A DNA stretch of 10,010 bases from a virus (lineage: Monodnaviria; Loebvirae; Hofneiviricota; Faserviricetes; Tubulavirales; Inoviridae). Below are positions 1 through 10,010 of this stretch, piece by piece. The DNA lies in the IMG/VR virus record IMGVR_UViG_2721755647_000001, one strand, 5' to 3'. The position numbers and the translations under genes are program-made. The notes below the pieces were generated by a model. It had not been told where the DNA came from and ran no database searches. It saw only the letters and a list, made by a program, of their open reading frames with translations. The stretch's first letter is position 1. Each line of letters starts with the position of its first letter.

Positions 1-5
1 ACATA

Positions 6-146
6 TTACTTTCCTTGTGTTGGTTTAGTAGTGGATTGTTGAGCTTTTTCTAAAAGCCTTTTTGCTTTAGATGTGTCCAAACCATCTTGGGCAAAGCCTT
101 GTTGCTTATCATTCTGTTTTTGTTCACTTTTTTTTGGCGTATTCAT
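6..146 (-). CDS. Hypothetical small Lys/Gln-rich protein (about 46 aa, MNTPKKSEQKQNDKQQGF...) in the non-repeated left flank
   Basis: In-frame ATG at 146-144 on the - strand within the 6..320 ORF; weak RBS; sits behind a leader homologous to the one upstream of the 140-aa membrane-protein gene in copy 2. Low-complexity sequence, so it may not be a real gene. Confidence 0.2.
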   Translation of the reverse strand: MNTPKKSEQKQNDKQQGFAQDGLDTSKAKRLLEKAQQSTTKPTQGK

Positions 147-215
147 CAGTATATACTTTGACTCGTTTTGTTTATCTCGATGACTTACTTTTTGTTTAAG
201 TTTTGCACAAACTAG

Positions 216-261
216 AACGTGCAGTGTTGGTAATACTGCACGTTTGTACCATTCGTGGTAC
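216..261 (-). terminator. Twin stem-loops: AACGTGCAGT-9nt-ACTGCACGTT (216-244) and GTACCA-ttcg-TGGTAC (246-261); a terminator or attenuator after the RHH gene, or possibly (-) strand-origin-like hairpins
   Basis: Perfect inverted repeats read directly from the sequence, immediately after the stop codon (262-264) of the - strand RHH ORF; a U-rich tract follows on the - strand in copy 2. Confidence 0.4.
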
Positions 262-444
262 TTAATCCTTTTGTTTGGCAGACATGAGATCTTCTGCTGC
301 ATCTTTAGAGTAGTTATCAATCAGATAACCTAAAATCTCTGTCCATGTAATTGTTTTTCCTAGTTTTACACTGGCATTTATAGCCAGTCGTTCTAGTTTC
401 ATTTTTCTTTCTTCCGTCACGTTATAAGTCGTGCGCTTTGCCAT
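262..444 (-). CDS. Ribbon-helix-helix (CopG/Arc/MetJ-like) putative transcriptional repressor, 60 aa
   Basis: MAKRTTYNVTEERKMKLERLAINASVKLGKTITWTEILGYLIDNY has the beta-strand then two helices pattern of CopG (recalled RLTITLSESVLENLEKMAREMGLSKSAMISVALENY); divergent from gII; present in both repeat copies. RBS is weak. Confidence 0.5.
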   Translation of the reverse strand: MAKRTTYNVTEERKMKLERLAINASVKLGKTITWTEILGYLIDNYSKDAAEDLMSAKQKD

Positions 445-571
445 TTTTTACGCTCGTTCAATGCAATATTTGAAGTGAGTATACATGCTCATGAACTCAT
501 ATCATCCAAGCCTCTTGAACTCACTAGCTCACTGATGTAATGTTAAAACACTAATGAACTACTGAACTCAT
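445..571. promoter_or_regulatory. Divergent control region between the RHH gene and gII, with four TGAACTCA/TGAACTAC repeats, a CTCACT direct repeat and a candidate gII promoter (TTGAAC-17nt-TAATGT, 515-543); possible (+) origin or operator
   Basis: Repeats at 492-499, 516-523, 555-562 and 563-570 read from the sequence; -35/-10-like hexamers with 17-nt spacing. The canonical M13 nick motif was not found by eye. Confidence 0.4.
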
Positions 572-613
572 GTGTTAGTAAGTCGTCATTTTTGCAATTT
601 TGAGGATTTATTC

Positions 614-1666
614 GTGATCGATTGGCTTACCGGGATTTTCCCTTGCACACACAAACCGCTTCCGGCGGGGAGTGTTGTCAGCGTTGATGCTGACGGTGCA
701 ATTGAGTGGGAAACCGTTAAGCGACTGACTGTTCGCGGCTCGCATGAAGCAACGATGAAAGTACGATCGATAGGATCTAATGGCGAAGGTAAAGCGACAC
801 ATTTGTACATTGATGGTAATCCGTCCAAGTTTTTGCAGGGGCATTCTGTTGTTGGGTCGGATGATATACAAGGGCTCATGTTGACGGTCTATGCCAGGAT
901 TTTATCCTTATTGAATATTCCTCATGATTTAGCGTCTTATAAAGCTGTTATAGCAGGTCAGTATAAAATTTCACGTGTTGACATTAATTACATGTATTCA
1001 TTATCTACGCTAGAAAATGTCAGATCATGGCTTTATGCCGCCGAATTTAAAGCTAAAACACGCCATGGTCGCGCATGTGGGAAAGGCGGTACAGTTTATT
1101 TAGGTAAAAACTCCCGTCGATGGAGTCTGAAATTTTATTCAAAATATGATGAACACGTTTCGGGTAAAAAAGGGCACCAGATAGCCGAAGATTTTGTACG
1201 AGCCGGGTTACTGGACTGGACGAAAGATAAATTACGTATTGAATTAACATTAAGAACAACTGAGCTTATTGATTTAAATTTAACGCTTGGCGCTAACTGG
1301 AATATGAAAACACCACGTCAATTATTCTCTGAATATGTAGGGAGAATAGAAATGAATCAGAATGCTATTTTAAGTGATGAAAAAATAACGAAACTGCCAA
1401 GAAAAATACAGTCAACTTATTTACTTTGGAAACAAGGGGCTAACATGAAAGAAATGTTACCTCATAACACTTTTTATCGCCATAGAAGAGAATTGCTTTC
1501 GTTCGGTATCGATATTAATTTCTATTGTGATTCACCAGACTCTAATAACGTTGTTCCGCTAATAAGAACGCTGGAAGCCAAGCCAGTGGAAATCCCCTTA
1601 TGGATTTATGAGAAAGGTTTTATTTTCGATTACAACCGTATTTCGCACGCCAGTAGCTGGCATTAA
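614..1666 (+). CDS. gII: Gene II replication initiation (nicking-closing) protein; likely GTG start at 614 preceded by GAGGA (the ORF track begins at an upstream GTG at 572)
   Basis: From 614 the product begins (M)IDWL..., like M13 pII MIDML...; internal NPSKFLQGHSVVGSDD resembles M13 pII SPAKVLQGHNVFGTTD; first gene of the Ff order. Confidence 0.8.
   Translation: MIDWLTGIFPCTHKPLPAGSVVSVDADGAIEWETVKRLTVRGSHEATMKVRSIGSNGEGKATHLYIDGNPSKFLQGHSVVGSDDIQGLMLTVYARILSLLNIPHDLASYKAVIAGQYKISRVDINYMYSLSTLENVRSWLYAAEFKAKTRHGRACGKGGTVYLGKNSRRWSLKFYSKYDEHVSGKKGHQIAEDFVRAGLLDWTKDKLRIELTLRTTELIDLNLTLGANWNMKTPRQLFSEYVGRIEMNQNAILSDEKITKLPRKIQSTYLLWKQGANMKEMLPHNTFYRHRRELLSFGIDINFYCDSPDSNNVVPLIRTLEAKPVEIPLWIYEKGFIFDYNRISHASSWH
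1352..1666 (+). CDS. gX: Gene X protein, an in-frame internal restart within gII (104 aa)
   Basis: In-frame ATG at 1352 preceded by GGAG at 7-nt spacing; analogous to M13 pX (the C-terminal third of pII). An alternative in-frame ATG at 1304 has no SD. Confidence 0.45.
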   Translation: MNQNAILSDEKITKLPRKIQSTYLLWKQGANMKEMLPHNTFYRHRRELLSFGIDINFYCDSPDSNNVVPLIRTLEAKPVEIPLWIYEKGFIFDYNRISHASSWH

Positions 1667-1677
1667 AGGAAAGTAAT

Positions 1678-1995
1678 ATGTCTAATTATGGTCTTTTCGT
1701 TAAGGGTAAAATGTTGGGAGCCCGCCAACGTAATAAAGTTAATGGTCAGGGCTATTATAATGAAATTGGTATTGGCCTTGAAATACCTGATGGTTTTGGT
1801 GGTACAAAGCAGGATCAAATTATTATTCGAGTTTCTCAGACTCTCGTTAACGCAGGTCTAATGAACCAGGCGAATGCTTTCATTGGGAAATTAGTTCAAA
1901 TTCCTGTCTATGTCCGTGCGTGGTCAATGGAGGGTAGGGAAGGTGTAACTTATAATGTTTCTTCCGATGGTGGCATCGCAGAGATCAAAGGTTAA
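1678..1995 (+). CDS. gV: Gene V-position protein, putative ssDNA-binding protein (105 aa; sequence diverged from M13 pV)
   Basis: Strong RBS AAGGAAAG; sits between gII and gVII as in Ff. Assigned by position only; no similarity to recalled M13 gVp was seen. Confidence 0.55.
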   Translation: MSNYGLFVKGKMLGARQRNKVNGQGYYNEIGIGLEIPDGFGGTKQDQIIIRVSQTLVNAGLMNQANAFIGKLVQIPVYVRAWSMEGREGVTYNVSSDGGIAEIKG

Positions 1996-1997
1996 AT

Positions 1998-2084
1998 ATG
2001 GACGATGTTATTCAAATTTTGATAGCGTCTGGCATCGTTATTTCTTTTGGCCTCGGCGCGATTACTGCGGGGGTCTTTCGTTAA
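1998..2084 (+). CDS. gVII: Gene VII minor coat protein (28 aa, MDDVIQILIASGIVISFGLGAITAGVFR)
   Basis: Small hydrophobic ORF right after gV; resembles M13 pVII (...ALGIIAGGQR); RBS AAAGG. Confidence 0.6.
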   Translation: MDDVIQILIASGIVISFGLGAITAGVFR

Positions 2085-2179
2085 TGTATATCGTTTATTT
2101 CTTCGGGGCTTATACCTTTGGTTTTGCCCTTTTCTATGCGGTCGGTTCATTTAAATCATTTTCTGACCGATTAATGTAA
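2084..2179 (+). CDS. gIX: Gene IX minor coat protein (31 aa, MYIVYFFGAYTFGFALFYAVGSFKSFSDRLM)
   Basis: Start overlaps the gVII stop (TAATG); small hydrophobic protein at the expected position. Confidence 0.6.
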   Translation: MYIVYFFGAYTFGFALFYAVGSFKSFSDRLM

Positions 2180-2198
2180 CCTTAATGGAGTTATTCCT

Positions 2199-2441
2199 AT
2201 GAAAATTCTGTCTACTGTTAAATATAAAGTTGCTCTGGCTTCAACTGCGCTTTTTGTTTCTGCAAGTTCTTTTGCGGCTGAAGGCGCTACAGGTGGTACT
2301 GATTATGCAGGTCAGGCAATGGATGCTTTGTTGACTCAGGCAAATGATCTCATTGGTAAAGTATGGCCTGTTGTTGTGGCTGTGGTTGGCGCTGGGCTTG
2401 CCATTCGTATTTTCAAAAAATTCTCTTCAAAAGCGGTTTGA
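2199..2441 (+). CDS. gVIII: Gene VIII major coat protein precursor (80 aa, signal peptide plus mature coat)
   Basis: Signal peptide ...[13 protein letters not shown], then an acidic N-terminus, hydrophobic core and basic C-terminus ...[11 protein letters not shown], close to recalled IKe g8p ...[11 protein letters not shown]; RBS GGAG. Confidence 0.9.
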
Positions 2442-2450
2442 ATTTCACTC

Positions 2451-2475
2451 AGGGGCACTCGTTGCCCCTTTATTA
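2451..2475 (+). terminator. Rho-independent terminator after gVIII (AGGGGCA-ctcgt-TGCCCCT then TTTATT)
   Basis: 7-bp GC-rich stem with a 5-nt loop and T-rich tail read from the sequence; Ff phages have a strong terminator at this position. Confidence 0.6.
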
Positions 2476-2487
2476 AAGCGGGTTACT

Positions 2488-3738
2488 ATGAAAAGGAAAA
2501 TATTAATTCTTTCCGCTGTCCTCATTTCTCCTTTTTCACATGCTGAGTCATGGGAAAGCATTACTAAATCCACTTATCAAAGCTCTGCCTACGCTGAAAG
2601 TAAGCAAATAACCAATCAGGATGGCTCTAAGTCAACGGTTTACTATATTGATGCTGCTATGCAGGCCTCCGCTTGTCAGGGTGCTAAATCCAGTGCTCAG
2701 AGTGTATTTACTCAGGTTAAACCAACTTATGAGGGTATCTGGCCTGATTCTGAATTCCGTCTTGTTTTTACTGGTGATTGTACTTACAGCGATTCACCAG
2801 GGCAGAAGGATAAATATTGGTCTTTAACGGCTTATATTGTTGGTGATATTCAGCGTTCTGTTCCTGATGAAAAACCTACTGACCCGACACCAGAAGAAAT
2901 TTGTGAAGCGAAGCCGCCAGAAGAAGGTGTATTTAATAATGTTGATTCATATGATGGTGGTCGTTATATCTACTATAACGGCTGTGAATATGAGGCTACT
3001 GGTGTCATTGTTTGTCAGGGTGATGGTACTGTTTGCGCTGCAACATGGAAGCCTACAGGTACTGTAGCTGACCCCTCTGATAAACCCTCAACCCCCCAAA
3101 ATGGTGGTGGTGAGTCTGGCGGTGGTGAGTCTGGCGGTGGTGAGTCCGGTGGCGGTAGTTCTGGCGGTGGTGAGTCCGGTGGCGGTAGTTCTGGCGGTGG
3201 CTTTAGTGGTTCCAGTCTTTCTAAAGGTGATATTCAGTCTGCTATCGAAGGTGCTTCACCCAAAATAGCCAGCGATATTCATGATAAATTAACGGAGAAA
3301 GACACTTCATCAGATGATAAAAAAAATGCCGATGAACAAACTAGGAATAATATAAATCGTCTTGACGATTCCATTAACAATCTTACGCGGGGGGCTGGCC
3401 GTTTTGCTGACCCTTCAGGTGGTGATTCTCGTTATGGAAAGGGCGACTCTGAATTAGATGGCGCTTCTACTTTGGCTGATTCTGAATTGGGAATTGAAAA
3501 GGATTCTCACGGTGCTTTATGGGAAGCATTTTTAAATAAAGGTGCTATGCTGCCTAATTTACCCAATGGTAACGGCTGCTCTGATTTTATTATTTTTCCC
3601 GGAGAGGTTTATCAGATTGATATTGGTTGCGATAAATTACTGACTATTAAAGATGTTCTTTCATGGGTTTTTTATTGCCTTACGTTCTGGTATGTCTTTA
3701 CTTCTTTAACTTCATTGCTTCGCAAAGGGGGTGAGTGA
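2488..3738 (+). CDS. gIII: Gene III adsorption protein (416 aa) with signal peptide, Gly-rich linker and C-terminal membrane anchor; true start 2488, not the ORF-track 2344
   Basis: [19 protein letters not shown] signal; [10 protein letters not shown] repeats; hydrophobic C-terminus like M13 pIII; starts just after the gVIII terminator. Confidence 0.85.
3103..3204 (+). repeat. Tandem 15-bp (GGxGGxGAGTCy) repeats encoding the pIII glycine-rich linker, including a perfect 30-bp duplication (3133-3162 = 3163-3192)
   Basis: Read directly from the sequence; encodes [33 protein letters not shown]. Confidence 0.85.
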
Positions 3739-4079
3739 TGCCTTTATTATTAGGTATTCCTGCATTGTTGCGTTTTCTTATTGGTCTTGTTCCTTTGTTT
3801 ATTGGCTATGTGGCGAGTTTTTTAGCTCGACTTGCTACCAGAACAGGATTAATCGCCTTTGCATTGGTCGCATTAATTACAACAACTGTTACGCTTTTAA
3901 TGCAGTACCTTGCTGAGGTCATGTATAACGGTTTACCTGCTGATTTCTCCCATTTAATGGCGTCTGTATTGCCTGACCATTTTCAGGCGTGTGTTAACGT
4001 TATTATGGTTACTCGTATCAGTGTTTTTGTTTTCGATTTAAAACAAAAATTTCTTGATTATGCAAACAGGGTGATTTAA
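3738..4079 (+). CDS. gVI: Gene VI minor coat protein (113 aa); ATG at 3738 overlaps the gIII stop (TGATG)
   Basis: [14 protein letters not shown]... matches recalled M13 pVI MPVLLGIPLLLRFL...; C-terminal FVFDLKQK resembles M13 FIFDVKQK. Confidence 0.85.
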   Translation: MPLLLGIPALLRFLIGLVPLFIGYVASFLARLATRTGLIAFALVALITTTVTLLMQYLAEVMYNGLPADFSHLMASVLPDHFQACVNVIMVTRISVFVFDLKQKFLDYANRVI

Positions 4080-5174
4080 ATGGCGGTTCATGTAGTAACA
4101 GGCAAATTAGGCTCAGGCAAGACACTTGTTAGTGTTTCCAGAATACAGGAAAGACTTGCTAAGGGTTGTCCTGTTGCCACTAATCTTGATCTTAAATTGC
4201 ATAATATGCCTATGGTTGGGCGTTATGCGAAAAAAACGCGCGTTATTCGCATTCCTGACAAGCCTTCATTAAATGATTTACTTGCTATTGGTATTGGGAA
4301 TACATCTTACGATGAATCCCGTAATGGCCTCCTTGTACTTGATGAATGTGGTACTTGGTTTAATTCCCGCTCATGGGGTGATAAAGACAGACAACCTGTT
4401 ATTGACTGGTTTTTACATGCCAGAAAATTAGGCTGGGATATTATATTTTTGATTCAGGATATTTCGATAATGGATAAGCAAGCTCGTCTGGCGCTTGCTG
4501 AGCATGTTGTTTATTGTCGCCGTTCAGATAAATTAAACATTCCTTTTGTTGGCTCCATTATGAATTTGGTTTCAGGGGCGCGATTTTCTTTACCAAAGGT
4601 ACACTTTGGCATTGTCAAATATGGTGATAACGTTAATTCAATTACTGTTGATAAATGGATATACACCGGAAAATCATTATATTCCGCCTACAATACAAAA
4701 CAGGTTTTTACTGATAACTATCCGCATGGTGCTTATTCGCTTTTGCCACCATTTATCACGCACGGTCAATTTTCTGTTCACAGAGGATTTAATTATTATA
4801 TGCGCCTCACGAAAATTTATTTTCGCAAATCGAACCGTCTTATATTAATGCTTTCTTTTTTGGCGCTGGGGCTTGCGCTTGGTTTCTGGCTCCAGTCTGG
4901 AAAGAATGTTGATGAAATCTCCGCTATTAAATCTGCTTATGCTGAACAGGCGAGGGCGGTAACGCCTGATTCGTCCAGTGACTTACCCCGACTTTCTATT
5001 AATTCTTTTTCACAACTTGGCTTTGACGTTTCCGTTACGTTTGTTGATGCAAAAGGTACGAAATATCAGTATTTTGATTTGATTAAAGATGGTTATTCCG
5101 TTGATATTAAAGATGCCTGTCGTGTTGTTATTAGAAAAGGCCGTTATTTACAGACTGTTATCTGTCAGGAGTAA
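4080..5174 (+). CDS. gI: Gene I assembly ATPase (Zot-family, 364 aa) with Walker A GKLGSGKT
   Basis: MAVHVVTGKLGSGKTLVSV... closely matches recalled M13 pI MAVYFVTGKLGSGKTLVSV...; also LLVLDECGTWFN and DWFLHARKLGWDIIFL. Confidence 0.9.
   Translation: MAVHVVTGKLGSGKTLVSVSRIQERLAKGCPVATNLDLKLHNMPMVGRYAKKTRVIRIPDKPSLNDLLAIGIGNTSYDESRNGLLVLDECGTWFNSRSWGDKDRQPVIDWFLHARKLGWDIIFLIQDISIMDKQARLALAEHVVYCRRSDKLNIPFVGSIMNLVSGARFSLPKVHFGIVKYGDNVNSITVDKWIYTGKSLYSAYNTKQVFTDNYPHGAYSLLPPFITHGQFSVHRGFNYYMRLTKIYFRKSNRLILMLSFLALGLALGFWLQSGKNVDEISAIKSAYAEQARAVTPDSSSDLPRLSINSFSQLGFDVSVTFVDAKGTKYQYFDLIKDGYSVDIKDACRVVIRKGRYLQTVICQE
4800..5174 (+). CDS. gXI: Gene XI protein, an in-frame internal restart within gI (124 aa)
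   Basis: Internal Met gives MRLTKIYFRKSNRLILMLSFLALG, resembling M13 pXI MKLTKIYLKKFSRVL... Confidence 0.5.
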   Translation: MRLTKIYFRKSNRLILMLSFLALGLALGFWLQSGKNVDEISAIKSAYAEQARAVTPDSSSDLPRLSINSFSQLGFDVSVTFVDAKGTKYQYFDLIKDGYSVDIKDACRVVIRKGRYLQTVICQE

Positions 5175-5181
5175 TATTATT

Positions 5182-6447
5182 ATGCGCTCTGTTATTGTTG
5201 CTTTTTTATTTGCCTGTTCATTCTGCGTTTCTGCTGAAACTGTTAATTTAAACAATTCATCTGTTCGCTCATTTGTTCAGTGGTATTCTTCAAAAACTGG
5301 CAAGCCTGTTATTGTTAATCCTGATATTAAAGGAAACGTAACCGTATTTAATGCTGATGTTAATCCAACAAATATTGATGATTTCTTTAAGTCTGTTCTG
5401 AATGCTAACGGTTTTGTCATGCTTTCTGGCAATCCTGCGGTAGTCTCTTTGCCGTCTAAATTACCTTCACAGATGGTTTCGGATTCCGATGATTCTGATA
5501 ACCAGTCTTATGATACTTTTCCTTCTGAGCCATCTTACCAGCCAGTACCTGTGGCGCTTACGGTCAGAAATTTTAAGCTGACAAAAGTTAGATCGTCCGA
5601 TGTTCAGCAACTGATTAAAATTTATCTTGATTCTAATGGTGGTGGTAATGTCGTGGATTATCCAGGCAATAACTCGCTGATTGTTTCTGCGCCTGACGAG
5701 CTGCTGCCGGTTCTGTCCGATTTTATCAATTCTGTGGATGTTGCCCGCGATCAGGTTCTCATTCAGTCGCTGATGTTTGAAACCAGCTTGTCTGATGGCG
5801 TTGATTTATCGTTTGCGGCAGGTTCTGCATCCGGTCATAAGGTTGCGGGGGGCTTTAATACTTCTGCACTGGGTAGCGCTCTTTCTACGGCGGGCGGTTC
5901 TTTTGGTATTTTTGATGGTAACGTGTTGGCGCTGTCTCTGCGTGCTGTCCAGAGTAATTCACGCTCTAAGGTGATTTCAACGCCGCGTATTCTTACTCAG
6001 TCTGGTCAGACTGGTTACATTTCCGTAGGTAAGAATGTGCCGTTTATCACCGGAAAGGTAACGGGCGAATCTGCCGGGGTAAATAATCCGTTTCAGACTA
6101 TCGAGCGTCATGATGTTGGCGTTTCTCTCAAGGTAACGCCTGTTGTCATGGGTAACGGGCAACTAGTTCTGACTATCGACACTCGCGCTGATTCAATCAG
6201 CAATGATGATCAGGCATCCGATATTATTACTAATCAGCGCCAGATTCAGACGACAGTCCAGATTAAGGATGGTCAGACGTTGTTATTGGGGGGGCTTATC
6301 GATTCATCGTTTAGCAATGCTGAGCGTTCAGTTCCAGTTATAAGTAAAATTCCTCTTATAGGCTGGATTTTCAGTAGCAAGGCAGACAGCAATGAACAGC
6401 GTATTATGTATATTTTGCTTACAGCACATATCATTCGTCCACTTTGA
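5182..6447 (+). CDS. gIV: Gene IV secretin (outer-membrane export channel, 421 aa); true start 5182 (MRSVIVAFLF...), not the ORF-track 5089
   Basis: Signal peptide, then extended similarity to recalled M13 pIV (NNSSVRSFVQWYS vs NNSPLRDFVTWYS; VPFITGKVTGESAGVNNPFQTIER conserved); RBS AGGAG. Confidence 0.9.
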   Translation: MRSVIVAFLFACSFCVSAETVNLNNSSVRSFVQWYSSKTGKPVIVNPDIKGNVTVFNADVNPTNIDDFFKSVLNANGFVMLSGNPAVVSLPSKLPSQMVSDSDDSDNQSYDTFPSEPSYQPVPVALTVRNFKLTKVRSSDVQQLIKIYLDSNGGGNVVDYPGNNSLIVSAPDELLPVLSDFINSVDVARDQVLIQSLMFETSLSDGVDLSFAAGSASGHKVAGGFNTSALGSALSTAGGSFGIFDGNVLALSLRAVQSNSRSKVISTPRILTQSGQTGYISVGKNVPFITGKVTGESAGVNNPFQTIERHDVGVSLKVTPVVMGNGQLVLTIDTRADSISNDDQASDIITNQRQIQTTVQIKDGQTLLLGGLIDSSFSNAERSVPVISKIPLIGWIFSSKADSNEQRIMYILLTAHIIRPL

Positions 6448-6490
6448 TGGATAGCGGGTAGGTGCGTGAGCCCTGCTCGCTATCCATCAA
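6444..6490 (+). other. Long hairpin (13-bp perfect stem TTGATGGATAGCG / CGCTATCCATCAA with a structured interior) overlapping the gIV stop; packaging-signal-like and/or terminator
   Basis: Inverted repeat read directly; in Ff phages the packaging-signal hairpin lies immediately downstream of gIV. Confidence 0.55.
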
Positions 6491-6516
6491 ATGGACATTA
6501 TTGATTGGGGTAACTA

Positions 6517-6825
6517 ATGGATTCTTATGGGATTTTATCTGCTCTGGCAGAACGAACGATTACAGCGGAAGAAGCAAAAACAATGACACTTGCAGCCAGA
6601 AGTTCTTCGGCTCAGGTAAATGAAGCATCACTTGCTCTGTTACTGATTGATAATACTCTGGATGCGATCAAAGCAGCTGCCAGTGAAGGGAAAGGATACA
6701 CTTTACTTCCTTCTTATGAGATTTCTTTAAAAGCCATTGATTTAGCAGAAGAATTTTTAAGGAAACAATGCGGCTATGTTATTGATAACCAGAATGGCGT
6801 AAGGACGGTCTATTGGTTTATATGA
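6517..6825 (+). CDS. Hypothetical protein (102 aa), first cargo gene after the packaging hairpin
   Basis: ORF with a GGGG-containing RBS 6 nt upstream; no recognisable family; followed by a stem-loop. Confidence 0.45.
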   Translation: MDSYGILSALAERTITAEEAKTMTLAARSSSAQVNEASLALLLIDNTLDAIKAAASEGKGYTLLPSYEISLKAIDLAEEFLRKQCGYVIDNQNGVRTVYWFI

Positions 6826-6828
6826 TAA

Positions 6829-6869
6829 CCCCGGACAGTGACAAAACTTGCTTTTGTTAGTGTCCGGGG
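6829..6869 (+). terminator. Extended imperfect stem-loop (CCCCGGACA...TGTCCGGGG with inner ACAAAA/TTTTGT pairing) between the two + strand cargo genes; a T7 run lies about 22 nt downstream
   Basis: Read from the sequence; the spacing to the T-run is not typical of an intrinsic terminator, so it could be an attenuator or structured RNA. Confidence 0.3.
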
Positions 6870-6942
6870 TTGGCCAAGCCGAACAATTCTGTTTTTTTAG
6901 CGTTATTGCTGATTCGGCGCGGCAGCATTACGAGGAGATAAA

Positions 6943-7176
6943 ATGCAATTTTTCACATCCAGCGATACTGTAATGTTATGTGCGAAGACCTGCGATCGCT
7001 GTGGTCGCCATGCGAAGACGGTGGTAGATGACATTGAGTTCAATGAGTTTCTGTCTGTTAATCACTTAGCTGGATACGGTTCAATTTTTGGTGACAGTAA
7101 TCGCTTAAAACTGGATTTATGCCAACATTGCCTGAAAGACGTCCTGGGCCAGTGGATTACGGTCTGTGACCAATGA
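6943..7176 (+). CDS. Hypothetical Zn-ribbon protein (77 aa; Cys17-x2-Cys20 ... Cys60-x2-Cys63)
   Basis: Strong RBS GAGGAG 5 nt upstream; paired CxxC motifs; no family recognised. Confidence 0.55.
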   Translation: MQFFTSSDTVMLCAKTCDRCGRHAKTVVDDIEFNEFLSVNHLAGYGSIFGDSNRLKLDLCQHCLKDVLGQWITVCDQ

Positions 7177-7214
7177 CGGCACCGGTAACGCCAGTTCCCA
7201 CCATCCTTACCATT

Positions 7215-7247
7215 GGTGCGCATAATGTACGACTCGTTATGTTGAAA
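7215..7247 (+). other. dif-like XerC/XerD recombination site, candidate attP of an integrative element exploiting Xer: perfect XerC arm GGTGCGCATAA, then TGTA, an atypical spacer, and a XerD-arm-like TTATGTTGAAA
   Basis: The first 15 nt (GGTGCGCATAATGTA) equal E. coli dif (GGTGCGCATAA-TGTATA-TTATGTTAAAT); the XerD-like arm matches 9 of 11 but is displaced 5 bp, giving an 11-bp rather than 6-bp central region. Confidence 0.55.
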
Positions 7248-7248
7248 A

Positions 7249-7285
7249 GGCCGCTGCGAAAATCGTATCCCGCAGCGGCCTCTTT
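7249..7285. terminator. Bidirectional rho-independent terminator (GGCCGCTGCG-12nt-CGCAGCGGCC) flanked by A-run and T-run, between the convergent cargo modules
   Basis: 10-bp GC-rich perfect stem; TCTTT downstream on +, TTTTC downstream on -; sits between the + ORF ending at 7176 and the - ORF ending at 7312. Confidence 0.7.
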
Positions 7286-7311
7286 AGCATAACGTCATTG
7301 TGCGAACCAAT

Positions 7312-7791
7312 TTATATAGAAATGAAAAACTCCTCTTCATTCCTTTTTTTATAATTGTCATCCCATATAAGTTTTATTCGGTATTTAGTTTTACTTCCAA
7401 AGCTTAGTCCCGCTAAAATTTCAATCCCATGTTGCGGGTGTAATACTTCATATGGAAATTTATCTTCTACATCATGCATGTAAAGATATTCATTGCCATC
7501 GTTATCAGGGAAATGAATTTCTATATTTTTAGCCTCAACTTTCCCTCTATTAAATATCTTGAGTCTATAGTTGTTTTTGGCTATTTTTACGAGGCGGGCA
7601 CCAAGCTCAGCCTTCATCTCATTAATTGCTGACTTTGTTTCTTTTTCTAGAAGCAACTTACGTAACCTGTCTTGCTCATCCTTTATAACCTTTTGTTCTC
7701 TATCACTTTTTCTCGACTTCACTTCTGATGATATGATAGTGTAAATCGATACTACAAGCGCAGCTAAAGCGATGGCATCACTCGTTGTCAT
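7312..7791 (-). CDS. Hypothetical membrane-anchored protein (159 aa): N-terminal TM helix, charged coiled-coil-like segment, C-terminal globular domain
   Basis: Start overlaps the stop of the upstream Zn-ribbon gene (TAATG), RBS AAGGA; hydrophobic AIALAALVVSIYTIISS then KSRKSDREQKVIKDEQDRLRKLLLEKE; about 30% GC by eye. Confidence 0.6.
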   Translation of the reverse strand: MTTSDAIALAALVVSIYTIISSEVKSRKSDREQKVIKDEQDRLRKLLLEKETKSAINEMKAELGARLVKIAKNNYRLKIFNRGKVEAKNIEIHFPDNDGNEYLYMHDVEDKFPYEVLHPQHGIEILAGLSFGSKTKYRIKLIWDDNYKKRNEEEFFISI

Positions 7792-8066
7792 TATTTAATC
7801 CTTATATTTTTACTTCCTTTAAATGCCTTTTTGAGCATATCATTAAACTGTTTTTGAATATCTTTTGTTAACTCTTCTTTTATCTCATCCACATGGGCGT
7901 CAATACTCACCCCGTTTTCTTGGATTAAATCATCATTAGTGAATTCTTTCCCGCAGCCTACACATCTGACGACTTCAGACTCTTCCTCGTGTTCCATCTC
8001 TGTATTTCCGCACACAGGACATAGCAGGGTGATATTTCTATTGTATTTCTCAGGATTCAGTTTCAT
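7791..8066 (-). CDS. Hypothetical Zn-ribbon protein (91 aa; CPVCG-x15-CVGCG) with an acidic/basic helical tail
   Basis: Good RBS GAGAGGAA; classic C-x2-C-x15-C-x2-C; translationally coupled to the downstream membrane-protein gene. Confidence 0.6.
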   Translation of the reverse strand: MKLNPEKYNRNITLLCPVCGNTEMEHEEESEVVRCVGCGKEFTNDDLIQENGVSIDAHVDEIKEELTKDIQKQFNDMLKKAFKGSKNIRIK

Positions 8067-8094
8067 ATATTTCCTCTCTTCTACGTTTTATTGA

Positions 8095-8517
8095 TTACCA
8101 GTAATATGAATTTCTTCTGTGCCACCAATAAAGCAGCCCGTATCCGATGATAAGAATTCCGAAAAACATCAACGACATTCCCCAGCCAGTTCCATACCAC
8201 GAAACCATATCATCGAAAACCAATCCACCCGTTTCACGTACTCCGGCAGCTTCCTTAAGGATTGGTTTGAATACCGGAATCAGAAGGGCAATCGCCAGTG
8301 GAGCACCCCAGCGAACAAGACCTGTTTCCATTTTGATCCCGAAAAAGATCCCCGCCCCGACAACAAGCAGCCAGACTATCAGGCCAGGCGCAGTTTCCAG
8401 TGCTGTTTGCCATTCAACATCGAAAGTTTTCATTAGCCAGGCAACAACTGCCAGACAGAAAGCAAATACGCCGACGACAACCAGTTCAACGCCGCTTGTT
8501 TCGTTGTTTCTACTCAT
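8095..8517 (-). CDS. Hypothetical integral membrane protein (140 aa, about 4 predicted TM helices)
   Basis: Four hydrophobic stretches of about 20 aa; Trp/Tyr-rich C-terminus; the antisense + ORFs are low-complexity artefacts; about 48% GC by eye, unlike its neighbours. Confidence 0.6.
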   Translation of the reverse strand: MSRNNETSGVELVVVGVFAFCLAVVAWLMKTFDVEWQTALETAPGLIVWLLVVGAGIFFGIKMETGLVRWGAPLAIALLIPVFKPILKEAAGVRETGGLVFDDMVSWYGTGWGMSLMFFGILIIGYGLLYWWHRRNSYYW

Positions 8518-8559
8518 CCTTTTGATCCTTTTTCACTGTTCAAAATTCGCACAATAAAG

Positions 8560-8605
8560 AACGTGCAGTGTTGGTAATACTGCACGTTTGTACCATTCGT
8601 GGTAC
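8560..8605 (-). terminator. Twin stem-loops, copy 2 (same as 216-261)
   Basis: Same sequence at +8344 offset; lies between the RHH gene and the 140-aa membrane-protein gene on the - strand. Confidence 0.4.
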
Positions 8606-8788
8606 TTAATCCTTTTGTTTGGCAGACATGAGATCTTCTGCTGCATCTTTAGAGTAGTTATCAATCAGATAACCTAAAATCTCTGTCCATGTAATTGTTT
8701 TTCCTAGTTTTACACTGGCATTTATAGCCAGTCGTTCTAGTTTCATTTTTCTTTCTTCCGTCACGTTATAAGTCGTGCGCTTTGCCAT
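8606..8788 (-). CDS. Ribbon-helix-helix putative repressor, copy 2
   Basis: Same 60-aa product as 262..444. Confidence 0.5.
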   Translation of the reverse strand: MAKRTTYNVTEERKMKLERLAINASVKLGKTITWTEILGYLIDNYSKDAAEDLMSAKQKD

Positions 8789-8915
8789 TTTTTACGCTCG
8801 TTCAATGCAATATTTGAAGTGAGTATACATGCTCATGAACTCATATCATCCAAGCCTCTTGAACTCACTAGCTCACTGATGTAATGTTAAAACACTAATG
8901 AACTACTGAACTCAT
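8789..8915. promoter_or_regulatory. Divergent control region with TGAACTCA repeats, copy 2
   Basis: Same as 445-571. Confidence 0.4.
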
Positions 8916-8957
8916 GTGTTAGTAAGTCGTCATTTTTGCAATTTTGAGGATTTATTC

Positions 8958-10010
8958 GTGATCGATTGGCTTACCGGGATTTTCCCTTGCACACACAAAC
9001 CGCTTCCGGCGGGGAGTGTTGTCAGCGTTGATGCTGACGGTGCAATTGAGTGGGAAACCGTTAAGCGACTGACTGTTCGCGGCTCGCATGAAGCAACGAT
9101 GAAAGTACGATCGATAGGATCTAATGGCGAAGGTAAAGCGACACATTTGTACATTGATGGTAATCCGTCCAAGTTTTTGCAGGGGCATTCTGTTGTTGGG
9201 TCGGATGATATACAAGGGCTCATGTTGACGGTCTATGCCAGGATTTTATCCTTATTGAATATTCCTCATGATTTAGCGTCTTATAAAGCTGTTATAGCAG
9301 GTCAGTATAAAATTTCACGTGTTGACATTAATTACATGTATTCATTATCTACGCTAGAAAATGTCAGATCATGGCTTTATGCCGCCGAATTTAAAGCTAA
9401 AACACGCCATGGTCGCGCATGTGGGAAAGGCGGTACAGTTTATTTAGGTAAAAACTCCCGTCGATGGAGTCTGAAATTTTATTCAAAATATGATGAACAC
9501 GTTTCGGGTAAAAAAGGGCACCAGATAGCCGAAGATTTTGTACGAGCCGGGTTACTGGACTGGACGAAAGATAAATTACGTATTGAATTAACATTAAGAA
9601 CAACTGAGCTTATTGATTTAAATTTAACGCTTGGCGCTAACTGGAATATGAAAACACCACGTCAATTATTCTCTGAATATGTAGGGAGAATAGAAATGAA
9701 TCAGAATGCTATTTTAAGTGATGAAAAAATAACGAAACTGCCAAGAAAAATACAGTCAACTTATTTACTTTGGAAACAAGGGGCTAACATGAAAGAAATG
9801 TTACCTCATAACACTTTTTATCGCCATAGAAGAGAATTGCTTTCGTTCGGTATCGATATTAATTTCTATTGTGATTCACCAGACTCTAATAACGTTGTTC
9901 CGCTAATAAGAACGCTGGAAGCCAAGCCAGTGGAAATCCCCTTATGGATTTATGAGAAAGGTTTTATTTTCGATTACAACCGTATTTCGCACGCCAGTAG
10001 CTGGCATTAA
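8958..10010 (+). CDS. gII: Gene II replication initiation protein, copy 2 (ORF track starts at 8916)
   Basis: Same product as the first-copy gII. Confidence 0.8.
   Translation: MIDWLTGIFPCTHKPLPAGSVVSVDADGAIEWETVKRLTVRGSHEATMKVRSIGSNGEGKATHLYIDGNPSKFLQGHSVVGSDDIQGLMLTVYARILSLLNIPHDLASYKAVIAGQYKISRVDINYMYSLSTLENVRSWLYAAEFKAKTRHGRACGKGGTVYLGKNSRRWSLKFYSKYDEHVSGKKGHQIAEDFVRAGLLDWTKDKLRIELTLRTTELIDLNLTLGANWNMKTPRQLFSEYVGRIEMNQNAILSDEKITKLPRKIQSTYLLWKQGANMKEMLPHNTFYRHRRELLSFGIDINFYCDSPDSNNVVPLIRTLEAKPVEIPLWIYEKGFIFDYNRISHASSWH
9696..10010 (+). CDS. gX: Gene X in-frame restart, copy 2
   Basis: Same as 1352..1666. Confidence 0.45.
   Translation: MNQNAILSDEKITKLPRKIQSTYLLWKQGANMKEMLPHNTFYRHRRELLSFGIDINFYCDSPDSNNVVPLIRTLEAKPVEIPLWIYEKGFIFDYNRISHASSWH

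Follow-up and report, generated by a model that had tools for sequence, protein, structure and literature searches.

Results

The 33-nt dif-like site at positions 7215-7247 of the DNA analysed here, a stretch of 10,010 nucleotides called the window below, is in all likelihood one half (attP1) of a bipartite attachment site of the CTXφ type belonging to the filamentous phage UPΦ, the folded (+) strand of which would be recombined by the host enzymes XerC and XerD. The phage in the window is UPΦ, which has already been published, and the triple array in Escherichia coli ECONIH2 that carries it has also been described. Hence, the attachment site is real and already known, being one of CTXφ type in a published phage and genome. 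Its apparent anomaly, an 11-bp spacer that is impossible for dif, is resolved as a textbook CTXφ-type attachment site. What we add are explicit coordinates for its second half, attP2, and for the hairpin in UPΦ, the use of one attachment module by many inoviruses, and the variation of its bulge and loop.

Anatomy of the dif-like site

Positions 7215-7247 read GGTGCGCATAATGTACGACTCGTTATGTTGAAA on the + strand, and can be divided into a XerC-binding arm, GGTGCGCATAA (7215-7225; binding predicted), which is the same as that of E. coli dif, a spacer of 11 nt, TGTACGACTCG (7226-7236), and a XerD-like arm, TTATGTTGAAA (7237-7247), which agrees with TTATGTTAAAT at 9 of 11 positions. An earlier note, made from the letters of the window, had described a dif-like site with a perfect XerC arm and an 11-bp centre lying inside the cargo, and this description holds: the pattern GGTGCGCATAA-N5-12-TTATGTTRAAW has a single match in the window and no match in 200 dinucleotide-preserving shuffles, and accessory ORFs flank the site on both sides (+ strand ORFs 6517-6825 and 6943-7176 to its left, - strand ORFs spanning 7312-8517 to its right). 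A looser half-site scan of the window recovered attP1, its inverted partner and one weak match, and nothing else; the expectation for such a scan is about 0-0.08 per shuffled related plasmid locus of 6-8 kb. Searching the window for canonical dif with up to 3 mismatches allowed gave no match, indicating that attP1 is not a plain dif site.

Alignment with the host dif, GGTGCGCATAATGTATATTATGTTAAAT, likewise agrees with the note, in that the initial 15 nt are shared, comprising the XerC arm plus 4 bases of the centre, with the TGTA that opens the spacer matching the TGTA of the dif central region TGTATA, and the XerD arms agree at 9 of 11 positions. The two sites part company thereafter, since TTATGTTGAAA begins 11 nt past the XerC arm whereas the XerD arm of dif begins 6 nt past it, and the XerD side of the central region reads CG in attP1 as against TA in dif. 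Homology with the central region of the host site is thus confined to the XerC side (TGT(A)). E. coli dif further differs in that its 6-bp centre belongs to a duplex substrate for FtsK-activated, XerD-first dimer resolution.

The phage and its genes

The window is 100% identical to positions 1589605-1599614 of the chromosome of E. coli ECONIH2 (NZ_CP014667.1), and the phage was identified through this genome match together with the literature. UPΦ is reported to integrate in tandem at dif and to have structural genes like those of IKe/I2-2 together with genes II and V resembling those of YpfΦ, and the ECONIH2 tandem triple with its heterogeneous accessory ORFs was described by Shapiro and Turner in 2020 (PMC7307601). 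These traits are all present here (core genes of the IKe/I2-2 kind, genes II and V of the YpfΦ kind, a tandem array at dif), in the same genome and from the same phage group (UPΦ901/UPΦ). A megablast search against a phage collection returned only short gene IV matches to IKe and to Erwinia PEar phages, and UPΦ, YpfΦ and CUS-1 were absent among these matches. The possibility that the phage is CUS-1/YpfΦ itself was ruled out, as the resemblance to the Yersinia pestis prophage is limited to attP, genes II and V and two short elements; in this our own comparison agrees with the published one (PMC7307601). Judged by these similarities, UPΦ is a mosaic of a replication module and attP like those of YpfΦ/CUS-1 and morphogenesis genes like those of IKe/I2-2.

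The gene content is of the Ff/IKe type, with G2P, G5P, the major coat protein, a G3P with a pilus-binding domain, a DUF5455 protein, a Zot-like pI and a secretin. From left to right the window holds the tail of cargo block A (1-213), the regulator ORF of copy 1 (262-444, - strand), its gene II (614-1666, + strand), genes V, VII, VIII, III, VI, I and IV (+ strand, to 6447), the two + strand accessory ORFs, the attachment region, the cargo ORFs of copy 2 (7312-7791, 7791-8066 and 8095-8517, all - strand), the regulator ORF of copy 2 (8606-8788, - strand) and its gene II (+ strand, from 8958). Genes II to IV thus lie in Ff order on the + strand of the window, which, from established inovirus biology, we take to be the packaged (+) strand; it is collinear with the top strand of dif. 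Pfam recovered inovirus core domains only: among the regulator, the products of genes II, V, VIII, III, VI, I and IV and the five accessory ORFs it detected no integrase or recombinase, and no DUF3653 (XafT-like) domain in that same set, the 28-aa gene VII lying outside the scan. The five accessory ORFs received no Pfam, NCBIfam or PADLOC assignment, with the exception of a 91-aa ORF, a member of the ECs_2282 CxxC zinc-binding family, for which PADLOC gave a weak PDC-S64 match (E = 5e-7).

Several smaller elements of the phage deserve mention. The variable cargo extends from attP2 (about 7312) to about 8537/193, and in the same slot a Salmonella circular record carries a Doc-like toxin and other E. 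coli copies an AbiJ-like or PD-(D/E)XK gene. At its right boundary, just downstream of the regulator ORF, lies a conserved element of ~80 nt (193-272 and 8537-8616) with a near-perfect palindrome, AACGTGCAGT...ACTGCACGTT (216-244/8560-8588), that is 84-89% identical in YpfΦ despite different flanking genes; a terminator and a minus-strand origin are both possibilities for it. A second non-coding element, of 106 nt (6824-6929), contains a hairpin with 20-nt arms (6827-6871), is 88% identical in YpfΦ amid unrelated surroundings, and is a candidate packaging signal or origin hairpin. In gene III a tandem 15-nt repeat (3088-3207) encodes the linker of the attachment protein; the copy number of the linker motif differs between strains according to the UPΦ paper (PMC7307601).

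A tandem array precisely at dif

In its 40-kb chromosomal context (L001) the window lies in an array of three head-to-tail filamentous prophages of 8287, 8344 and 8344 bp, preceded by marRA ... hipBA, followed by host genes and situated exactly at dif beside hipA. The XerC arm GGTGCGCATAA occurs four times in this context, at 13928 (attL), at 22215 and 30559 (internal junctions) and at 38903 (attR), with 22215 corresponding to position 7215 of the window. At attL the complete 33-nt site comes directly after host DNA from the hipA side, and at attR the left flank of the phage, ending in ccttaccatt, is followed by the exact 28-bp dif (L001 38903-38930) and then host DNA. Thus, the proposal of the earlier note that the site serves as an attP for XerCD-mediated integration of the kind used by CTXφ, CUS-1 and YpfΦ is upheld by an array at dif in which attL and both internal junctions carry the site and attR carries an intact dif; the wider context thereby supplies both the repeat site and the host dif that one would look for. 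The same context supports the idea that the cargo comes to lie at the prophage ends after integration.

When the empty site is reconstructed by joining dif to the host flanks on its left and right, E. coli 536 contains it 100% contiguous, and 894 genomes cover at least 80% of this query, implying that the array is a precise insertion at dif. Identical attL and attR junctions are found in E. coli UM146, the left junction of which (L054 2460-2508) is full of N in the RefSeq record; this run of N may be a tandem array collapsed in assembly. Copies 2 and 3 are identical through GGTGCGCATAATGTA and differ from the very next base, which places the crossover within the 15 shared nucleotides (7215-7229). 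Accordingly, the window comprises 7.2 kb from the right-hand side of prophage copy 1 (variant A; 1-7225, + strand) and the left-hand part of copy 2 (variant B; 7226-10010, + strand), the latter beginning with the rest of attP. The stretch 214-1666 equals 8558-10010, and 1-213 differs from 8345-8557, because copy 1 carries another cargo block than copies 2 and 3. That the period of 8344 nt reflects a circular wrap-around was ruled out by this difference and by the three real copies in the context.

The cores of the three copies are 100% identical. The hairpin loop discussed below reads AAAATAGAATCC at attL and AAAATCGTATCC at the internal junctions, so that the bases to the right of each crossover, the loop included, travel with the downstream prophage; such a heterogeneous array fits integration at a regenerated right-hand dif. 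We also observed that, besides its different loop, copy 1 has a different minus-strand cargo block (L001 14025-15146 as against 22312-23517).

The same site is found in a free form of the phage. A circular Salmonella record of 7,938 bp is 98-99% identical to the window phage, the cargo excepted. Its attP1 (33 nt) and attP2 are unchanged, and between them there are 3 stem substitutions and 1 loop substitution. This indicates that the 33-nt site belongs to the phage as its own attachment site, and is no decayed scar. As an alternative to an attP, the earlier note had considered a decayed junction of a tandem array: a junction it is, but not a decayed one, as attP1 and attP2 are the same in the free circle and are kept in more than 20 variants.

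An inverted partner and a forked hairpin

A repeat finder detected an inverted repeat pairing 7235-7258 with 7271-7294, and the right-hand part of this repeat enters a second dif-like site, attP2, on the - strand (7282-7308; GGTTCGCACAA TGACG TTATGCTAAAG). attP2 consists of a XerC-like arm (9/11), a spacer of 5 nt and a XerD-like arm (9/11), and lies in opposite orientation to attP1, 35 bases away. Neither spacer would be workable in a duplex, one being 11 nt (10 in some variants) and the other 5 nt. In single-stranded DNA the 100 nt from 7212 to 7311 (+) are predicted to fold into a forked hairpin of -31.2 kcal/mol (z = -7.58), with none of 200 shuffles equally stable, and we propose this whole structure as attP(+), the substrate of XerC and XerD. 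In the predicted fold the two XerC arms pair together, as do the two XerD arms, and a GC-rich stem-loop (7248-7281) forms the tip, its stem consisting of 7248-7258/7271-7281 and its loop of the 12 nt 7259-7270. The central region is asymmetric, with a 7-nt bulge, TACGACT, on the attP1 side and 1 unpaired nt on the attP2 side, and is bordered by pairing of the spacer TG with CA of attP2 and of the spacer CG with CG of attP2. Hence, the inverted attP2 and the hairpin, neither of which the earlier note had seen, together account for the 11-nt spacer of attP1.

The position of the GC-rich stem-loop, exactly between the ends of the convergent ORFs 6943-7176 (+) and 7312-7791 (-), could also suggest that the inverted repeat is nothing more than a bidirectional terminator with coincidental attP2 arms, or else that the site is a decayed integration scar. 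We regard this as very unlikely, for the predicted pairing spans 37 bp, reaching well past the GC stem, and takes in two arms of 11 nt, each agreeing with the XerC or XerD consensus in 9 of 11 bases; moreover, the 33-nt site and attP2 are unchanged in the free circle, in YpfΦ and in many unrelated inoviruses, in which only the stem-loop between the sites differs, at one to four positions. The stem-loop probably does double as a bidirectional terminator between the convergent transcription units, a role that is compatible with the attP function and no replacement for it. A terminator scan with a loop limit of 8 nt did not flag this hairpin with its 12-nt loop, and Rfam gave no match for the element.

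Conservation of the attachment module

Exact-pattern scans of species-representative genomes and of IMG/VR yielded 48 loci, of which about 40 share the attP1/attP2 architecture, including loci from Y. pestis, Lelliottia, Phytobacter, Erwinia tracheiphila, Rosenbergiella and Kluyvera. At the Y. pestis locus (L011) attP1 is identical at 33 of 33 positions and the phage-side flank is the same, identifying it as a junction of YpfΦ copies; the host-specific left flanks at other loci mark these as attL junctions in other hosts. In an alignment of 22 distinct variants RNAalifold independently recovered the hairpin with 35 of the 37 pairs. Standard pairs occupy 96.2% of cells in these 22 variants, a share that falls to 30-54% if the 3' partner is displaced by 1-3 columns, and compensatory changes are seen at 3 pairs; for instance, in Rosenbergiella a change from CG to CA at the XerD-side border of the central region is matched by a change from CG to TG. 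attP2 is kept in all aligned variants, and its arms have a per-column entropy of 0.25-0.35 bits, compared with 0.05-0.06 for the GC stem, 0.71 for the loop and 1.24 for the bulge; the conservation of the top-strand arms of attP1 was preset by the search pattern and is thus subject to ascertainment bias. The TGT beside the XerC arm is invariant (22/22), the bottom spacer is constant at 5 nt, and the top spacer is 10 or 11 nt long with 13 different sequences among the 22 variants.

Since compensatory changes are few, the support for the hairpin comes mainly from conservation, which could also reflect a protein that binds two separate duplex sites. The variation of bulge and loop, along with the varying length of the bulge, argues for a folded single-strand substrate. 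This bears on a reading modelled on VGJφ, according to which attP1 in the duplex replicative form would recombine with dif through XerC and replication, attP2 being irrelevant or part of a terminator. Such a route would leave an identical integrated product, with which the observed attL and attR are equally compatible, and the reported insertion of YpfΦ between resident copies hints that a duplex junction can recombine (PMC4266046). It nevertheless appears quite improbable to us: natural Xer spacers are 6-8 bp and the 12-bp attP1 of CTXφ is reported to be unsuitable as a duplex (PMC4246890), a spacer of 10 or 11 nt with a hypervariable interior suits a bulge better than a fixed duplex geometry, and attP2 with its pairing to attP1 is kept across phages with unrelated cores.

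The column-wise variation also weighs against a reading in the manner of TLCφ, foreshadowed by the "degenerate XerD arm" that the earlier note had entertained, in which the site is used in canonical register with the centre TGTACG and the arm ACTCGTTATGT (7232-7242), and is recombined XerD-first with the help of an element-encoded factor. It would accommodate the perfect XerC arm and the match of 4 of 6 central bases to dif, but the arm shares no more than 5 of 11 bases with the XerD consensus and falls partly in those columns that vary most across the element; it is therefore no conserved binding arm. Furthermore, a well-conserved XerD-like arm lies 5 nt further on, an inverted partner is present, and there is no DUF3653/XafT-like protein among the ORFs scanned by Pfam. 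We accordingly rejected this register, the likelihood of which we consider negligible, and retain the CTXφ-type reading with two inverted sites.

The module extends beyond close relatives of UPΦ. We noticed that ~100 nt around attP (7211-7312) are 83-99% identical among inoviruses with cores that are unrelated at the nucleotide level, and often distant in protein sequence, and with other genes of little or no similarity (amino-acid identity 33-100% for pI and 25-100% for pIV). The comparison shows that many enterobacterial inoviruses with unrelated cores use one attP module. In one IMG/VR contig (L048 4419-4500) attP1 and the 5' half of the GC stem are kept, with the 3' half and attP2 replaced by unrelated sequence; this variant appears to be a naturally broken hairpin.

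A proposed route of integration

The preferred CTXφ-type reading implies the following course of events. In the packaged (+) single strand attP1 (7215-7247) would pair with the inverted attP2 (7282-7308) to give the modelled forked hairpin, its XerC arms forming one duplex, its XerD arms another, and its centre asymmetric at 11/5 nt; this structure would mimic dif. The host XerC and XerD would bind this folded site and bring it into synapsis with the chromosomal dif, whereupon XerC, by analogy with CTXφ, would cut after GGTGCGCATAA and exchange one pair of strands. The exchange would be stabilised by the TGT(A) in common with the dif central region, and a second exchange would be blocked because there is no homology on the XerD side. 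Replication might then turn the pseudo-Holliday junction into an integrated prophage, as it does for CTXφ. At the left end attP1 and attP2 would persist as duplex sites without activity, and the right end would regain an intact dif; attP1/attP2 on one side and a rebuilt dif on the other are indeed what the empty site and the junctions in ECONIH2 and UM146 show. The rebuilt right-end dif could serve as the entry for the next phage and so give rise to tandem arrays, with the site in the window as a phage-phage junction of such an array.

From such a junction, rolling-circle replication running from origin to origin, again as in CTXφ, could package the junction as the attP of the progeny, thereby joining the upstream core genes with the downstream cargo; if so, the progeny would carry cargo B only. 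We infer from CTXφ that the substrate would be ssDNA, that XerC alone would provide the catalysis, and that resolution by replication and progeny by rolling circle would follow. At the level of sequence, each prediction of the CTXφ model holds at the UPΦ site. A point that the simple model does not predict is the behaviour of YpfΦ in superinfection, where insertion occurs preferentially between resident copies; the mechanism of YpfΦ is itself only "proposed" (PMC4266046).

Relationship to other Xer-dependent phages

In CTXφ, attP1 is AGTGCGTATTA TGTGGCGCGGCA TTATGTTGAGG, with a spacer of 12 nt, and attP2, in inverted orientation and with a spacer of 7 nt, is AATGCGTATTA TACGCCA TTATGTTACGG; the two fold in the (+) ssDNA, XerC alone swaps one pair of strands, the specificity for the target is set by pairing beside the XerC arm, the pseudo-Holliday junction is resolved by replication, and one functional dif is regenerated with inactive attP1 and attP2 staying in the chromosome (PMC3089051, PMC4246890). 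The UPΦ site has the same hallmarks: two inverted dif-like sites with spacers unworkable as duplexes (11 and 5 nt, compared with 12 and 5-7 nt in CTXφ), a predicted fold, a TGT after the XerC arm that matches the host dif with no homology on the XerD side, no recombinase among the phage ORFs scanned, and a dif rebuilt on one side. The two differ in that the arms match E. coli dif in UPΦ and Vibrio dif in CTXφ, and in that the sites lie ~35 nt apart within a hairpin of ~100 nt, as against ~90 nt and ~150 nt in CTXφ. Further, it is for CTXφ only that the mechanism, with its irreversible integration, was tested experimentally, and it is extended to UPΦ by analogy.

YpfΦ and CUS-1 are listed among the CTX-type elements (PMC4246890) and are reported to have the same features as the CTXφ attachment site (PMC3089051, PMC4246890). 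A review of YpfΦ describes an inverted pair of XerC/XerD sites, a dif reconstituted at the 3' end, and tandem arrays of 2-4 copies with an "imperfect dif site" at the copy junctions (PMC4266046). UPΦ shares with YpfΦ the same attP2 and hairpin (96% identity over 124 nt) and genes II and V (80% identical in nucleotides), and with both YpfΦ and CUS-1 the integration at dif, the regenerated 3' dif, the tandem arrays and accessory ORFs at both prophage ends. YpfΦ/CUS-1 differ in the cargo beside attP2 and in their morphogenesis genes, which are non-homologous at the nucleotide level to the IKe/I2-2-like ones of UPΦ.

VGJφ resembles UPΦ in being a Xer-dependent filamentous phage with XerC-side homology (PMC4246890), but uses a single duplex site of 29 bp with a 7-bp centre in a reversible reaction, in contrast to the two inverted sites with centres of 10-11 and 5 nt in UPΦ. 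The UPΦ site thus lacks the single duplex site with a roughly 7-bp centre typical of the VGJ type, as well as the combination of a dif-like centre, a degenerate XerD arm and XafT/DUF3653 typical of the TLC type, its centre agreeing at 4 of 6 positions and the scanned ORFs containing no DUF3653. As for UPΦ itself, the junction repeats were previously reported to match only the initial 15 bases of dif, and the terms attP, hairpin and central region are absent from the main text of that paper (PMC7307601); spelling out a CTX-type reading for UPΦ thus adds a little and is no discovery.

Plasmid islands carrying parts of the module

A side observation that may be new, and the sole part of this work possibly leading somewhere new, concerns conjugative plasmids. 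About 430 of these, mostly IncF, contain a stretch 90-96% identical to 7238-7309, which covers the hairpin tip and attP2 along with part of the XerD arm. These copies adjoin a minus-strand AbiJ_NTD4/DUF7014 (STM4504/CBY_0614) gene and lack the phage core genes; the plasmid gene is ~69% identical to its phage-borne homologue, and the hairpin 93%. The IncF copies have a decayed attP1 half and can no longer fold the long hairpin, so that they do not represent intact attP sites. The 3 plasmids examined (islands at L004 2940-5785, L005 2940-4735 and L002 4001-6902) each have, 1.6-2.8 kb further to the right and in the same orientation, a dif-like site of 28 bp with the canonical 6-bp spacer, ahead of which come a conserved flank and an HTH_28/HTH_32 gene. 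In layout these islands resemble a miniature CTX-type prophage, and could be decayed prophages or Xer-mobilised cargo cassettes.

A further, rather doubtful suggestion is that the attP hairpin and the cargo gene beside attP2 constitute a portable module that passes between conjugative plasmids and otherwise unrelated enterobacterial inoviruses, and that the islands, of 2-3 kb, are phage cargo captured by Xer recombination (mini-IMEX) and not just decayed prophages. If true, they would be an enterobacterial counterpart of the pdif modules of Acinetobacter, by which defence genes could pass from phages to plasmids and back. In the Klebsiella pneumoniae plasmid pINF078-VP (L002 3990-4020) the phage spacer TGTACGACTCG directly adjoins a XerC-like arm of foreign origin, ACTTCGCTTAA, and leads on to the XerD arm, the hairpin and attP2; this attL-like junction is the product that would be expected if XerC had carried out an exchange with a plasmid Xer site.
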